Positions 3,766 through 55,550 of a stretch of DNA of 64,000 nt are shown here, one piece after another. How positions within the stretch are numbered: the stretch's first letter is position 1; every line of letters starts with the position of its first letter. The translations under genes were made by a program, and so were the position numbers. The DNA comes from Candidatus Omnitrophota bacterium. GTDB taxonomy: Bacteria > Omnitrophota > Omnitrophia > Omnitrophales > Aquincolibacteriaceae. The notes below the pieces were generated by a model. That model was not told where the DNA came from and did no database searches. It worked only from the letters and a program-made list of their open reading frames with translations. The stretch is from positions 19,107 through 83,106 of the forward strand of contig JAKLIQ010000009.1 of assembly GCA_022709525.1 (NCBI GenBank). The letters run 5' to 3'.

Positions 3766-3801
3766 AAAAAGGCGGCATCTTTTAAGATGCCGCCTTTTTG
3801 T
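3766..3801. terminator. bidirectional rho-independent terminator
   Basis: AAAAAAGGCGGCATC-TTTTAA-GATGCCGCCTTTTTG: a perfect 9-bp GC stem flanked by an A-run and a T-run, directly downstream of the small secreted protein gene. Confidence 0.8.
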
Positions 3802-4594: not shown

Positions 4595-4785
4595 AACCGA
4601 AGACAGGACTGCCTCCGATTACCGTACACGGCCATCCCCCAGCCGTGATGATATCGCACTTGTGTATTGGACACAAGTGTTGAACCGACCGAGGATTTGC
4701 CCCTGTGCTTTATGCACAGGGACTCCGCGGCGGGAACTTGTTGTTCCCGTCCGCGGGCATCCTCTCGTCCGCCTTCATAAACTCA
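4595..4785 (-). ncRNA. hairpin-rich structured region downstream of tRNA-Pro (four perfect or near-perfect hairpins); candidate structured ncRNA or REP-like cluster
   Basis: CACTTGTGT-ATTGG-ACACAAGTG; CCCTGTGC-TTTAT-GCACAGGG; CCGCGGCGGGAAC-TTGTT-GTTCCCGtCCGCGG; CACGGC-N9-GCCGTG. No convincing ORF. Confidence 0.3.
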
Positions 4786-4823
4786 AAAAGCCTGGAAGAT
4801 AAACGCCCAGGCTTTTTGAATTA
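4786..4823. terminator. rho-independent terminator immediately 3' of tRNA-Pro
   Basis: AAAAAGCCTGG-N11-CCAGGCTTTTTG. Confidence 0.7.
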
Positions 4824-4897
4824 TCGGGGCGAGAGGATTTGAACCTCCGACCGCACGCACCCCAAGCGTGTGCGCTACCAGGCTGCGCTACGCCCCG
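4824..4897 (-). tRNA. tRNA-Pro (anticodon GGG)
   Basis: Cloverleaf built by hand: acceptor CGGGGCG/CGCCCCG, D-arm AGCGCAGCCTGGTAGCGC, anticodon stem CACGC/GCGTG with loop TTGGGGT, T-arm GGAGGTTCAAATCCTCT. No encoded CCA. Confidence 0.85.
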
Positions 4898-5166
4898 ATC
4901 AACTTTTATTAAATTTTCAATGAAGATCGGGACAGTCCAAATTCACCCGTTCAATTTAGACCGAGAATTCGGACGCCCCGATGAACCTTAATTGAAAAAT
5001 ATAACAGACATCGGGAGCAGTCTTGATTTCCTTAAACTTTTTGGATAAAAATCAAGGCGCCCCGACATCGAAAAAACCTTTAAAACGAACCGAAAGTATA
5101 TCAAATTCCTGGAATTCTGTCTGTACTTTGGATGTGATTAGGTTATTTGAGAAGTAATTTGATTTT

Positions 5167-9345: not shown

Positions 9346-10095
9346 TTACCACCCTCCGCTCGCGCCGCCGCCGCCGAAACCGCCTCCCCCGCCACTAAAA
9401 CCGCCTCCGCGAAAACCGCCGCTCCGGAAACCTCCCCCCAGGGGGTAATACCCTCCGGGCCGTCTCCGGATACGGGATGAGCGCGAACTCACCCAAAAAT
9501 GAAAAAAGATAAGGACCATGAATAAAGCTACAAGTTTTCCGGCTTCGTTGAAGCGGTCTTTACCTTGCATCCCTTTGAATTCACCCTGCGTGGCTTTCAT
9601 GATCGCGTCGACACCGGCCGTAATCCCCGCCTCATAATCACCCTTGCGGAAATGGGGGGCGACCACCTGGCTGATGATCTGACCCGCCAACGCGTCCGGG
9701 AAAACCCCTTCGAGACCATAACCGACTTCGATGCGGATCTTGCGGTCGTTTTTGAAAATAAGAAAGATCACTCCGTTATCCCTGCCTTTTTGACCCACTT
9801 TCCAAGTCTCGGCAAGGCGTATTGAAAAATCCTCGAGCGAATCCCCTTCAAGCGACGGAAAGACGGCCACCACGACCTGATTTGAAGTTTTAGTTTCAAA
9901 ATTTCGGAGCGTCGTTTCGAGCTCTGCTTTCGTGGAGGGCGACAGCAGGCCGGCTCGATCCGTCACATAACCATCGGGGCGGGGCGGAACTTGAAGCGCC
10001 CAGAGCAGTGAAAGCGCAGAAAAGAGAAGGAGCGCAAAAAAAGAAAAAGGACGGACCGCTTTTTTAAGAAAAGAGATCCGTCCTTTTATTAACAT
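9346..10095 (-). CDS. TPM-domain protein with C-terminal TM helix and Gly/Phe/Arg-rich tail
   Basis: YVTDRAGLLSPSTKAELETTLRNFETKTSNQVVVAVFPSL, then the TPM core, then the tail GGGFRSGGFRGGGFSGGGGGFGGGGASGGW. Confidence 0.8.
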   Translation of the reverse strand: MLIKGRISFLKKAVRPFSFFALLLFSALSLLWALQVPPRPDGYVTDRAGLLSPSTKAELETTLRNFETKTSNQVVVAVFPSLEGDSLEDFSIRLAETWKVGQKGRDNGVIFLIFKNDRKIRIEVGYGLEGVFPDALAGQIISQVVAPHFRKGDYEAGITAGVDAIMKATQGEFKGMQGKDRFNEAGKLVALFMVLIFFHFWVSSRSSRIRRRPGGYYPLGGGFRSGGFRGGGFSGGGGGFGGGGASGGW

Positions 10096-27080: not shown

Positions 27081-28085
27081 TTATTTTTTGTAAATAGTGA
27101 TGATTTTGGGAGTTAGCGAAAAATCGATCCCCTTGGGAAGAGTGCAACGGTAACGGGGCCGGATAAGCTCCCTGCGAAGCCGCTCCCAGGCTTCAAAAGA
27201 AAGCCCGCTTTGAGGATCAAGTTTCTTGAGGGCTTTTTCCGCCACCCGGAATTGAAGCGCGGAAGGATGTTGAAGAAAAAAGGATCGCCGAAGCTCCACG
27301 CAAGCGCGGCGTTTTCTCTTAAAACATTTTTGCCACGCTTTCGTTTCAAGCCCGGAAATAAGTTTATTTTCCTCGGCCGCGATCGCGGGGATCCTCGAAA
27401 GGGCTTCGATGACCCGCGGATTAAAATTCCGCTGAAGGACCGGGATCAATTTTAAGCGGATGCGGTTCCGGATGAATCGTGAAGAGTCGTTGCTTTGATC
27501 CGACCGGAATGGAATACTTCTTTCGTGAAGAAAATGCAAAAGTTCCTTTTTGGTAAAGGCAAGAAACGGCCGGATAAGGTTAACGCCGCCCATTTTGAAT
27601 TTTTCGCGAATGCCTTGAAGCCCGCGAAGCCCGGTCCCCTGCAGGATCCGCATCAGGACCGTTTCGGCTTGGTCGTTTTGGGTATGAGCTAAAACGACCG
27701 TGAAGATCTTCTTGGCCTTTGCCGTCCTCAGAAAAAAATCATAGCGCATCTGCCGCGCGCATTCTTCGATCGAAATCTTTTGCGTCCGCGCTTCGCGCTT
27801 AACATCGCCGGTTCCTCCGTAAAAAGGCACTTTGAATTTCCGGGCAAGACTTTTTACAAAACGTTCATCGGTCTTTGCCGCGCGCGGACGGAGCTTATGG
27901 TTAAAGTGAATAAGAGCGAGCCTCCAGCGGTATTCAGAGGCGAGCGCCTTCAAAAGATGAAAAAGCGCGACGGAATCGGGTCCGCCCGAACAAGCGATAA
28001 GGATCTTTTGCCGCGGTCGGAAAAAACGCTTTTCGAGGAGATGAGCTTTAAATCGCGAAAGAAGAGTTTGCGAGAAAGTTTTCAT
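27081..28085 (-). CDS. tilS: tRNA(Ile)-lysidine synthetase
   Basis: PP-loop SGGPDSVALFHLL. ATG at 28085 gives a 4-nt overlap with the upstream GIY-YIG gene; the track start at 28184 would overlap it. Confidence 0.85.
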   Translation of the reverse strand: MKTFSQTLLSRFKAHLLEKRFFRPRQKILIACSGGPDSVALFHLLKALASEYRWRLALIHFNHKLRPRAAKTDERFVKSLARKFKVPFYGGTGDVKREARTQKISIEECARQMRYDFFLRTAKAKKIFTVVLAHTQNDQAETVLMRILQGTGLRGLQGIREKFKMGGVNLIRPFLAFTKKELLHFLHERSIPFRSDQSNDSSRFIRNRIRLKLIPVLQRNFNPRVIEALSRIPAIAAEENKLISGLETKAWQKCFKRKRRACVELRRSFFLQHPSALQFRVAEKALKKLDPQSGLSFEAWERLRRELIRPRYRCTLPKGIDFSLTPKIITIYKK

Positions 28086-28339
28086 GCGCAATCGAGATGG
28101 TGACGCAACATTTGCTTCAGGGAGGATCTTCCTTTTGACGTTTTTAGGTATCGTTCCCGGCGTTTTGCATCCAAGCAATCGCAAAAAGCCTCGTAAAATA
28201 AAATCTCAAAGGGACGCCTGGATCTTGTTGCGATAACCTTACCCTTCTGATGTTCAAAAAACCTTTTCTTTAAATCAGAAGTAAATCCAATGTAAAGTTT
28301 TTTGTCTTTTAAACTTTTGAGTACATAGGTGTAAAACAT
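28082..28339 (-). CDS. GIY-YIG domain small nuclease (UPF0213/YhbQ-like)
   Basis: MFYTYVLKSLKDKKLYIGFTSDLKKRFFEHQKGK is a GIY-YIG core; 85 aa. Confidence 0.75.
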   Translation of the reverse strand: MFYTYVLKSLKDKKLYIGFTSDLKKRFFEHQKGKVIATRSRRPFEILFYEAFCDCLDAKRRERYLKTSKGRSSLKQMLRHHLDCA

Positions 28340-28408
28340 ATGATGATTATGAGGGGGTGCCGCCCCGCACTGCAAAAAATATTTTTTCTAAGCTTGATGG
28401 ATTGTCGT

Positions 28409-28460
28409 GGCATGAACCACGTTGGGTTCATGCCTACCCTACACCCAACGTGGTGTAGGG
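28409..28460 (-). ncRNA. dual-hairpin module immediately 3' of tRNA-Met (two perfect 9-10 bp hairpins, apical loops ACGTT and CAACG)
   Basis: Minus-strand sense: CCCTACACC-ACGTT-GGGTGTAGGG, TA, GGCATGAACC-CAACG-TGGTTCATGCC. It abuts the tRNA discriminator base. Confidence 0.5.
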
Positions 28461-28534
28461 TGCCGGGGGCCAGGATTGAACTGGCGACCTAGGGCTTATG
28501 AGTCCCTCGCTCTAGCCAACTGAGCTACCCCGGC
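28461..28534 (-). tRNA. tRNA-Met (anticodon CAT; elongator-type acceptor, could alternatively be tRNA-Ile2/lysidine)
   Basis: GCCGGGGTAGCTCAGTTGGCTAGAGCGAGGGACTCATAAGCCCTAGGTCGCCAGTTCAATCCTGGCCCCCGGCA; G1:C72 paired, so it is not the initiator. Confidence 0.85.
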
Positions 28535-28585
28535 AAAAAATTTGAAAAGGGGAAATAGAAACGATTTAAATTGTTTGAAAAGGAC

Positions 28586-28638
28586 GCCCCGCACCACATT
28601 GGGTGCGGGGCTGCCCTGAACCCAACGCGGTTCAGGGC
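28586..28638 (-). ncRNA. dual-hairpin module 5' of tRNA-Met (apical loops GCGTT and CAATG), same architecture as the 3' module
   Basis: Minus-strand sense: GCCCTGAACC-GCGTT-GGGTTCAGGGC, A, GCCCCGCACC-CAATG-TGGTGCGGGGC. A possible promoter TTGTGC-18-TAGTAT lies just upstream (28643-28672). Confidence 0.5.
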
Positions 28639-28743
28639 GCGTATACTAACATAGCTTCGCGCGAACGCACAAGCCCGCTTCCGCCTCCGGTATCGATCGG
28701 AAATCATCTTTACATGAGAGGACTAAGGGCGTAAACTGAGCTC

Positions 28744-54522: not shown

Positions 54523-55550
54523 GAAAGGGCCGGTTTTGTTTCTGGAGTGATCGTTTTTTCAAGGATCTTGCCGCGGCGGCGGATCTGGAACGTCTGAGGC
54601 TCCCCTTCTTTTTGCTTCAGGATGATCCGGTAATACCGCTTCCAGCTATCGAGCTTCTCACGATTCTGCTCAAGAAGAATATCTCCCGGCAACAAACCGC
54701 CCTGCTCTGCGGGCGAGCCGGCCCGTACCTTGGCAACCTTGAAATTCAGGGTTTCCGGATCCCGGTCGACGCGAAATCCGAGACGCGGAGCATCGGGATT
54801 CAGTGAAAAGATCACGACGGGAAGCTCAAGTTCTCCGTCTTCACGGCGGATCATGAATTTCCGGAGCGCTTCCCCCGGAATGTTCAGGAAAAAACCGAAA
54901 AGATTCCCCGGCGTCACATCCTGACCGTCGATCTTCATGAGGACGTCCCCGTTCCGAAGGCCCTGCTCATAGGCCAGCGAGGACGGATCGGCCCCGATGA
55001 TGAAATAATGGGCCGTTTTATCGTCATAATGGAGGTCGCACCCGAGGATCACGCTTTTCATCCCTGGAAATTTTGTTTCCACAAGCCGTTCGTGGATATT
55101 CTTCGCCAAGGACCCTTCAAAAACCCCACGGGAACCGTCCCGCTTCCGGAAACCTCTGGAAGAAAGGCCCGTCTTTCTTTTGAAATAAGCCCTGATCCCG
55201 ACGACCGTCATGGTGGGGTCTTTTTCCACTACCCCGATCTCAAGCACGCAAAATCCGCTGGAAGACAGGGTCGGCGCTTTCGCCCATTCCTTGTATTCTT
55301 TTTTATACAAAGGAAAGGTCGCCGTCTGGATATAACCATTCGTCTTATCAGTGACTGCAAGCGGGATCTTTTCTTCTTCCAAGATCGCCGTTGTGGCGTT
55401 CCAAACCTCTTCGAAATTCCCGGGAAGCGGGAACGAACGCCCTTCGGTTTTAGAAGAAGAGAGGGAGAAACCGGAGAAAAGAAAGCATAAAAAAAGCAGG
55501 CCGCAAAACACAAGCGGCCTGCTTTTCTGGAAAAAAAGGAACCGTTTCAA
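54519..55550 (-). CDS. secreted PDZ-domain protein
   Basis: Signal peptide. PDZ-like blocks: GADPSSLAYEQGLRNGDVLMKIDGQDV and AGSPAEQGGLLPGDILLEQN. Confidence 0.65.
   Translation of the reverse strand: MKRFLFFQKSRPLVFCGLLFLCFLFSGFSLSSSKTEGRSFPLPGNFEEVWNATTAILEEEKIPLAVTDKTNGYIQTATFPLYKKEYKEWAKAPTLSSSGFCVLEIGVVEKDPTMTVVGIRAYFKRKTGLSSRGFRKRDGSRGVFEGSLAKNIHERLVETKFPGMKSVILGCDLHYDDKTAHYFIIGADPSSLAYEQGLRNGDVLMKIDGQDVTPGNLFGFFLNIPGEALRKFMIRREDGELELPVVIFSLNPDAPRLGFRVDRDPETLNFKVAKVRAGSPAEQGGLLPGDILLEQNREKLDSWKRYYRIILKQKEGEPQTFQIRRRGKILEKTITPETKPALS

Follow-up and report, generated by a model that had tools for sequence, protein, structure and literature searches.

A tRNA(CAT) gene framed by four hairpins

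We analysed a 64,000-nt stretch of contig JAKLIQ010000009.1 from a Candidatus Omnitrophota bacterium (the window; coordinates below count from its first nucleotide), in which a tRNA(CAT) gene on the minus strand (28458-28535; found by ARAGORN and matched by Rfam RF00005 with 64.5 bits) stands between two pairs of short hairpins and is followed by a gene for a small GIY-YIG nuclease. The original prediction, made by a model from the letters of the window, had described a dual-hairpin module on each side of the tRNA with no spacer after the discriminator base, and both details held up: four perfect hairpins were found, and the third of them begins at the discriminator A73 itself. Read along the minus strand, on which all four were recorded, the upstream module (module A) consists of H1 (28613-28638, GCCCTGAACC-GCGTTG-GGTTCAGGGC) and H2 (28586-28611, GCCCCGCACC-CAATGT-GGTGCGGGGC), the orientation of H2 being opposite to that of H1, and the downstream module consists of H3 (28436-28461, ACCCTACACC-ACGTTG-GGTGTAGGGT) and H4 (28409-28434, GGCATGAACC-CAACGT-GGTTCATGCC). 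The stems had been given as perfect and 9-10 bp long; they are perfect, but all four measure 10 bp, and each loop has 6 nt. A single A separates H1 from H2 and H3 from H4, and each module spans 53 nt. Each module is predicted to form two independent hairpins, whichever strand is folded (z = -6.7 to -7.8 against shuffled sequences). Rfam, searched at permissive thresholds, returned the tRNA as its sole match and left the hairpins unmatched. Elsewhere in the 64 kb, ACCNCGTTGGGT has one chance match with one mismatch and nothing more, and no other ACC-N6-GGT apex in the window is enclosed by more than 6 of 10 stem pairs.

The apices of the hairpins are reverse complements of each other, as originally described, but they do not represent two apex types. 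A single asymmetric hairpin (ACC-YNAYRT-GGT) occurs in two orientations, and the apices are complementary because the same hairpin is read in opposite orientations, head-to-head in each module. The stems, which had been taken for different sequences, turned out to be variants of two or three stems of one repeat family (see below) with compensated changes. The stem of H1 is the commonest ('B') stem of the family, and that of H3 differs from the family stem GCCCTGCACC by compensated changes at two pairs. The tRNA gene does not encode CCA and ends in GGCA; the outer 4 bp of H4 (GGCA/TGCC) are a copy of this 3' end, at a place where the family has GCCA/TGGC. The downstream module of the window resembles an inverted form of the module of two relatives, L128 and L266. 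A 38-nt A+T-rich insertion comes next and leaves only half of the following hairpin: a remnant (28358-28370, minus strand) composed of the 3' arm GTGCGGGGC and then GGCA, which the GIY-YIG start codon follows at a distance of 18 nt. Its intact counterparts are GGTGCGGGGT-GGCA in L128 and GGTGCGGGGC-GACA in L266.

Four nucleotides upstream of H1, we read from the sequence a promoter-like element, TTGTGC-N18-TGnTAGTAT (28643-28672, minus strand). It scores below the threshold of a consensus scan and is kept in all orthologous loci examined (L128, L129, L131, L133, L134 and L266). From its position, the tRNA transcript would start at the first bases of H1. A T-rich run directly follows H2, the only one of the four hairpins with such a tail and flagged as terminator-like in a sequence scan, and a 50-nt A+T-rich leader connects H2 to the tRNA. 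The predicted fold of the precursor tRNA retains the cloverleaf together with all four hairpins. Within the leader, two direct copies of the 10-mer CCTTTTCAAA (tRNA strand; 28541-28550 and 28574-28583) bracket 23 nt; they are not kept in L128 or L133.

The GIY-YIG gene (28082-28339, minus strand) encodes 85 amino acids (aa), of which residues 1-71 match PF01541 (E 6.8e-14), with no other domain; an NCBIfam search assigned the protein to no specific family. Its stop codon overlaps the start codon of tilS (27081-28085, minus strand) in the sequence ATGA (28082-28085). The gene order downstream on the same strand is GIY-YIG, tilS, ftsH, folP and yebC, and a HAD-family hydrolase gene lies divergently upstream. 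Homologues of this hydrolase bear the source names Candidatus Omnitrophota or Omnitrophica. Through the overlap, the inserted nuclease gene is tightly coupled to an essential downstream operon.

A dispersed family of hairpins with covarying stems

Metagenome contigs were scanned with a 26-nt pattern that permitted non-complementary combinations at four stem pairs. The scan returned at least 119 loci, falling into at least 79 genomic contexts, on contigs that are not assigned to genomes. The motif does recur at many other loci, as the original prediction would have it, but at the orthologous tRNA locus it is kept only in close relatives (see below). An earlier genome scan with the looser pattern CGTTGGGTN{13,17}ACCCAAYG had yielded 120 loci, chance matches without stems, which were reused as control DNA.

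The family hairpin reads GCCMTGMACC-YNAYRT-GGTKCAKGGC, and almost all of the matches listed are perfect 10-bp/6-nt hairpins. The family stems are GCCATGCACC, GCCCTGAACC, GCCCTGCACC and GCCATGAACC, two of which dominate among the matches listed. Together the four cover every A/C combination of stem positions 4 and 7, the opposite arm carrying T or G to match; pairs 4:23 and 7:20 alternate between A-T and C-G with few mismatches. A partner hairpin lies exactly 1 nt upstream in 37 of the 122 pattern matches listed, and the order of loop orientations is constant. The outer seven pairs of the partner hairpins were free in the search, and all seven were paired in 21 of 30 unique cases. Among 83 distinct hairpins, a set pre-selected for at least 8 of 10 pairs, two-sided changes were seen at 7 of 10 pairs and 96% of cells were paired; none of 500 shuffles reached the observed values. 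These data support the view that the hairpin stems are selected or maintained and that they covary, as the original prediction had proposed from the four hairpins of the window.

The neighbours of the hairpins are ordinary housekeeping genes (maf, yggS, ABC ATPases, CoA-transferases), and most members of the family lie far from tRNAs. Several neighbour genes fall into clusters named Thermodesulfobacteriota or Deltaproteobacteria, so that the family, Omnitrophota included, spans at least two phyla. Literature searches for these hairpin sequences, for GIY-YIG proteins with repetitive extragenic palindromes (REPs) or tRNA palindromes, and for multicopy nucleotide sequences of Geobacter found nothing relevant. 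In Thermodesulfobacteriota (L185, L188, L205, L152, L198 and others), the double-hairpin module sits in the middle of short tandem arrays of GCAATCC heptamers (variants GCATTCC and GCACTCC). The heptamers are in direct orientation on both sides, and removal of the module would leave a clean heptamer array.

Links to tRNA 3' ends and to the GIY-YIG gene

The hairpin loci (632 kb) carry 25 tRNA genes and 9-10 homologues of the GIY-YIG protein, versus nine and none, respectively, in 884 kb of control loci. At 13 tRNA genes (Met, eight Ser, Cys, Gly and Asn; the window, L128, L263 and L266 included), the last 2-6 nt form the outer 5' arm of the first downstream hairpin, always with the same loop orientation. 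Homologues 54-78% identical to the window protein are encoded on the tRNA strand at 10 further loci, within 125 nt downstream of such a hairpin. The start codon is 15-30 nt from the last hairpin in about half of the independent contexts and no more than 135 nt from it in all of them. The same layout of tRNA, hairpin and gene is present in L263, L255 and L266. The recurrent order is a tRNA gene, the hairpin that shares its end, further hairpins and the 85-aa GIY-YIG gene; at least two phyla have it, beside genes for tRNA-Met, tRNA-Ser and tRNA-Asn. The nuclease gene next to the hairpins, which the original prediction had pointed out at the window locus, is a real and recurrent companion of the family, absent from the control loci. 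In a Pfam census of the 150 open reading frames (ORFs) nearest to hairpins, GIY-YIG (seven members) was the sole recurrent nuclease or mobility family, and no Y1 transposase, other transposase or integrase was among the recurrent families.

The family of the window protein is large (998 clusters at 50% identity, E < 1e-10). The homologues measure 78-135 aa, and the named members belong to Omnitrophota, Patescibacteria and Planctomycetota. Proteins from different phyla are 54-65% identical, which points to horizontal spread of the gene. Viral contigs contained no relative of the GIY-YIG protein and one chance match to the hairpin pattern that is not a hairpin. Among the orthologous Omnitrophota tRNA loci, hairpins downstream of the tRNA and the GIY-YIG gene are either both present or both absent. 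At a serS-tRNA-Ser(UGA)-tRNA-Ser(GCU) locus, relatives differ in the placement of the hairpin arrays and the GIY-YIG gene, which follow different tRNA-Ser genes.

A tRNA-Ser gene is preceded by tandem repeats of ~122 nt (L255 3500-3850 and L257 3380-3850), whose copy number differs between samples. Each repeat comprises a partial 5' half of tRNA-Ser and a CCTGCCTG-CCGG-CAGGCAGG hairpin; downstream of the tRNA, a degenerate family hairpin is followed by the GIY-YIG gene.

Presence, decay and absence in relatives

Orthologous loci were fetched via homologues of the HAD-family hydrolase of graded identity and via one GIY-YIG homologue (L266). The locus of the window was found with identical sequence in six independent contigs from different samples, assigned to the same strain by an identical HAD protein. 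At 96% HAD identity (L127), the upstream module and the downstream region are identical and the GIY-YIG gene is present. At 88% (L133), H1 is identical and the H2 loop differs, and the contig ends in the tRNA. At 86% (L128), the upstream module is retained, two tandem units lie downstream, and the gene is present; the 5' arm of the first downstream hairpin starts with the tRNA's own GGCA. L266, from another Omnitrophota metagenome-assembled genome with a GIY-YIG protein of 78% identity, has the upstream module, one unit downstream and the nuclease gene. In L134 (HAD 85%), the upstream module has decayed, and tilS directly follows the tRNA with neither downstream hairpins nor the GIY-YIG gene in between. 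In L129 and L131 (HAD 80% and 72%), hairpins are absent upstream and downstream, as is the gene. The tRNA gene is kept in all of the orthologous loci. H1 is identical at the orthologous site in L127, L128, L133 and L266; pair 2:25 of H2 is C-G in the window and T-A, hence compensated, in L266, and the H2 copy of L128 has one mismatch.

This series indicates that the hairpins are lineage-restricted insertions rather than a conserved part of tRNA(CAT) expression. The proposal that they process or protect the tRNA found no support, since orthologous tRNA(CAT) loci at 72-80% HAD identity do without them and most family members are far from any tRNA.

Four independent assemblies of the species group (L124, L125, L133 and L135) break in or beside the tRNA, which suggests that repeats or strain variation at the hairpin arrays cause the breaks. 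In L131, which has no family hairpins, an unrelated hairpin with a T-run (GCCACCGC...GCGGCGGTTTTATTT; 9880-9905, minus strand) directly follows the conserved promoter-like element, so the leader may in general tolerate, or profit from, some structure at this place.

The orthologous maf-yggS spacer contains one double module in some relatives and two in tandem in one. In the maf-yggS spacers of L140, L159 and L247, an extra double hairpin of ~52 nt is nested in the loop of the first hairpin. Taken together, the nesting at maf-yggS, the shifts at the serS locus and the Omnitrophota series identify the 52-53-nt pair as the unit of spread, similar to a REPIN. In the 3' flank of a tRNA-Ser gene (L172, 117-180), the hairpin that abuts the tRNA holds a GGCCTTCGGCC mini-hairpin in its loop; with the nested copies in L140 and L247, this points to the hairpin loop as a probable insertion target.

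Concerted variation at the tRNA end

Where a tRNA shares its end with a hairpin, three positions change together. If X denotes the last four bases of the tRNA, the complement X' ends the 3' arm of the first hairpin, and X occurs again right after the second hairpin. For tRNA-Met, the three are GGCA, TGCC and GGCA in L128 and in the window (H4 with the remnant), and GACA, TGTC and GACA in L266, whose acceptor pair 2:71 is changed. For the CCA-encoding tRNA-Ser genes of Thermodesulfobacteriota (L173, L263, L186, L153 and L155), they are GCCA, TGGC and GCCA.

A 4-nt target duplication accounts for both copies of X and not for X', and selection on the stem accounts for X' and not for the distal X. 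One idea that would cover all three positions, by analogy with the logic of IS200/IS605, is a single internal guide pairing with either X; another is a hairpin-templated correction of mismatches. If the former is the case, the tRNA end would be restored as the element inserts, and the right end of the element would carry these four bases too, which would account for the concerted GGCA/TGCC/GGCA, GACA/TGTC/GACA and GCCA/TGGC/GCCA. It is attractive to speculate, as a tentative idea with an outside chance of being right, that the locus harbours an undescribed 53-nt mobile double hairpin which is moved by an Ssn-type GIY-YIG single-stranded DNA (ssDNA) nuclease and whose site is chosen by Watson-Crick pairing between an internal 4-nt guide, at the end of the 3' arm of the first hairpin, and the last four bases of the tRNA gene. 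The nuclease would then serve as the transposase of a REPIN-like element with a programmable target.

Other features of the window

The tRNA(CAT) gene and tilS are syntenic in most Omnitrophota orthologues, L129 and L130 excepted. As tilS encodes tRNA-Ile lysidine synthetase and the T arm of the tRNA looks Ile-like by eye, the tRNA may be tRNA-Ile2, a TilS substrate, rather than tRNA-Met. The minus-strand stretches 4657-4721 and 4790-4822, downstream of a tRNA-Pro gene (4823-4898), hold a common terminator-like hairpin with A/T runs and, farther from the tRNA, two short, unrelated hairpins. The family hairpin is missing there, and the repeat is thus not at every tRNA of the genome. Long perfect hairpins (13-15 bp) flanked by A- and T-runs, at 3766-3799 and 55492-55526, are of the bidirectional-terminator type and unrelated to the family.

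A probable mobile repeat with a candidate nuclease partner

We consider, with moderate confidence, that the four hairpins are two copies of a mobile 53-nt repeat, a double hairpin that works as ssDNA and has an Ssn-like GIY-YIG nuclease as its partner. Ssn proteins are ~94-aa single-domain GIY-YIG ssDNA nucleases whose cognate hairpin repeats of 20-50 nt flank the gene (Chenal et al. 2025, Nat Commun, PMC11893778). The hairpins of the window would act as ssDNA structures, with a polarity conferred by their asymmetric loops of 6 nt and by ACC/GGT closing pairs that do not vary. This polarity would be recognised by a protein, for which the adjacent 85-aa nuclease is the best candidate; we infer that it binds and cuts these hairpins and thereby moves them. 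Nicks at the feet or loops of the hairpins would lead to copying of the double hairpin to new sites, with the stems kept perfect. The new sites would be the loops of other hairpins, intergenic spacers and, preferentially, the exact 3' ends of tRNA genes. Here, one module would have inserted where the tRNA transcript starts and the other immediately behind the discriminator base, and the nuclease gene would have arrived together with the downstream copies.

Several observations bear on whether the hairpins work as DNA or as RNA. Single hairpins between co-directional genes are about equally frequent in both orientations, and the mismatches of imperfect copies show no enrichment of G.T. The two loops of a module are fully complementary in one of 30 unique double modules, which leaves little room for the kissing loops that had been suggested. 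Furthermore, the first hairpin takes up tRNA positions 70-73 in L128 and L266, so that in RNA the hairpin and the acceptor stem would be in competition. Collectively, these points favour ssDNA with a loop read by a protein, and we infer that ssDNA is the active form.

Some findings weigh against the reading as a mobile repeat moved by the nuclease, or limit it. The repeat occurs at one locus only in the 64-kb window, and its dispersal in this Omnitrophota genome is unproven. The covariation set was, as noted above, chosen for paired stems. All family hairpins are 5' of the GIY-YIG gene, and none of 10 loci has them on both sides. On a contig of Patescibacteria, a homologue of 62% identity adjoins tRNAs without family hairpins, so that gene and hairpins might each have been attracted to tRNA genes on their own. 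Module A lies in a transcribed leader with a terminator-like H2, and an effect at the RNA level is possible at this locus. Finally, the SRM motif published for Ssn repeats, HGTCWYN(0-2)YYVSBRHN(0-5)WNVSBRGN(0-2)RNCYNB as given in PMC11893778, is not matched by these hairpins.

Among the roles proposed in the original prediction, a protein-recognised, REP-like hairpin fits best, and a classical REP/REPIN system has to be weighed first. In such a system, a REP-associated tyrosine (HUH/Y1) transposase (RAYT) encoded elsewhere in the genome would mobilise the hairpins, and the GIY-YIG protein would be a bystander with the same preference for tRNA flanks. Inverted doublets of short palindromes, placed intergenically between housekeeping genes in many contexts, with nested and tandem copies, are what this system predicts, and the GIY-YIG homologue beside tRNAs without hairpins agrees with a bystander. 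A RAYT gene is normally single-copy per genome. The absence of Y1 or other transposases from the recurrent neighbours (150 flanking ORFs) counts against this system weakly, the contigs being short. It also finds no support in the flanks listed, where a position weight table showed no conserved GTAG-type head 5' of the hairpin, and it leaves unexplained why the GIY-YIG start codon is close to the last hairpin in all independent contexts and why the gene is absent from control DNA. We thus regard a RAYT-driven system as unlikely.

Alternatively, the hairpins may be cis-acting RNA elements of a tRNA(CAT)-GIY-YIG-tilS transcript, to which we give a small chance. The 5' pair would protect or attenuate the leader, and the 3' pair would block exonucleases, terminate transcription or separate the tRNA from the mRNA. 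Module A does begin at about the transcription start predicted from the conserved promoter, H2 is followed by a T-run, L131 has its unrelated hairpin and T-run in the same place, hairpins abut the 3' ends of 13 tRNA genes, and the predicted precursor fold accommodates cloverleaf and hairpins alike. Against this stand the orthologous tRNA loci without hairpins, the many members distant from tRNAs and in both orientations relative to transcription, the acceptor-stem positions consumed in L128 and L266, the lack of a G.U bias and of any Rfam match, and the conserved asymmetry of the loop, which a plain RNA hairpin would not need. The orientation data and the Rfam result also speak against the riboregulator that had been offered as a role. 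Side effects on RNA are nonetheless possible at this locus, with a 5' stem-loop on the leader, H2 as an attenuator and a barrier 3' of the tRNA.

Two further RNA structures were considered and rejected. A stem between the modules that encloses the tRNA for RNase III was set aside, because the 76% complementarity of the modules is trivial, each being a pseudo-palindrome of the same family. Intrinsic termination was rejected as only H2 of the four hairpins is T-tailed, and most family members lack a T-run and many lie between co-directional or divergent genes. The integron attC site envisaged originally likewise found no backing, since the stems, by inspection, are perfect without unpaired bases and no integrase is among the recurrent neighbours.

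We consider it quite improbable that the GIY-YIG gene is a selfish homing cassette which cuts at tRNA 3' ends and whose fold-back (snap-back) repair makes palindromes, the hairpins being scars. Such an origin would explain stems that are perfect whatever their sequence, target-derived bases included, the recurrence of the last 4 nt of the tRNA after each unit, and the different positions of the gene within one locus. Scars would not be expected to share a conserved loop and apex across phyla, nor to form a fixed 53-nt unit in at least 79 contexts, most of them without the gene, and the 85-aa protein has no DNA-binding domain of the homing-endonuclease kind. Chance palindromes or an assembly artefact are practically negligible: several assemblies do break at or near this tRNA, but the identical sequence in six independent contigs and the hairpins of relatives, fold z-scores below -6.7 and a family of at least 119 members are incompatible with either.

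Comparison with known systems

GIY-YIG genes among tRNA genes have a precedent in phage T4, whose SegB is a multi-domain GIY-YIG homing endonuclease for double-stranded DNA (dsDNA) in a tRNA gene cluster. SegB resembles the window protein in this placement, but differs in having no hairpin repeats, and no viral relatives were found here among the viral contigs searched.

IS200/IS605 elements transpose through ssDNA and find a tetranucleotide target by base-pairing it with a guide sequence that adjoins a hairpin. The elements described here share hairpin ends, a 4-nt sequence of the left junction repeated at the right end, and an internal complement of it. Nevertheless, they have no TnpA gene, measure 53 nt and extend the stem by plain Watson-Crick pairing, and the comparison is an analogy only.

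REP, BIME and REPIN elements reportedly spread with RAYT transposases, the inverted doublet being the replicating unit, as Bertels and Rainey in 2011 and Nunvar et al. in 2010 are said to have described. The likeness lies in the palindrome doublets, their intergenic or intra-operon placement, clusters and nesting, and the single associated gene beside some copies. Here, however, the associated gene is a GIY-YIG nuclease, with no Y1/HUH transposase among the recurrent families of the 150 flanking ORFs and no GTAG head, the stems are perfect and covary, and the paired hairpins are 1 nt apart rather than tens of nt.

The closest parallel that we discuss is Ssn. According to its authors, SsnA binds to the hairpin, cleaves ssDNA immediately upstream of it and acts on neither dsDNA nor RNA; the repeats (NTS/SRM) are also dispersed in hundreds of copies, at least one repeat flanks the gene in 71% of homologues and repeats stand on both sides in 42%, and the system is likened to REP/RAYT and to insertion sequences (PMC11893778). 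Set beside this system, the window locus is similar in its tiny single-domain GIY-YIG protein (<150 aa; 85 here, 94 in SsnA) next to hairpin repeats, and in repeats that are dispersed in intergenic DNA, take their polarity from a non-palindromic part and are spread across phyla. A family hairpin adjoins the gene at all 10 loci and in L263, L255 and L266, on the 5' side only. The polarity here resides in the loop, whereas that of Ssn repeats resides in the 5' flank, and the unit here is a dyad-symmetric pair of hairpins. The junction with tRNA 3' ends is another difference, being unmentioned in the Results and Discussion of PMC11893778.

The published SRM motif, whose regular expression does recognise the NTS consensus, gave one unrelated match in the window (55341) and 10 in 699 kb of hairpin loci, which is chance level. 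Among PLSDB plasmids, the window protein had a single distant match, from Rhizobium (37% identity, 45 bits). This 94-aa GIY-YIG gene (L265; Rhizobium sp. CIAT894 plasmid pRheCIAT894e, 586410-586694) has five copies of CGTCATCCCAGGGCTTGACCCTGGGATCCAC around it and an IS4 transposase adjacent. The five copies are exact matches to the Ssn motif as published, and L265 is a textbook Ssn-type locus. The window protein reached 28 bits against UPF0213 structures, to which the Rhizobium protein is also weakly similar.

On balance, we lean towards the view that the window pair works like an Ssn nuclease and its repeat, with a REPIN-like unit, its membership of Ssn being putative. Ssn was described only in 2025, and outside Neisseria neither its biological role nor the source of its repeats is settled (PMC11893778). 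The presence/absence, nesting and decay series found in nature makes the spread of such repeats open to direct study, and the tRNA-3'-end junction with its three-way covariation provides a concrete, testable hypothesis for site choice. For annotation, perfect hairpins that abut tRNA genes in these phyla are better labelled as repeats than as tRNA processing signals. If the nuclease truly reads a hairpin together with a freely variable 4-nt neighbour, it would also have practical appeal as a programmable ssDNA cutter. Compared with Ssn, this locus and its relatives would represent a second, sequence-unrelated pairing of a nuclease with hairpins, in uncultivated phyla.

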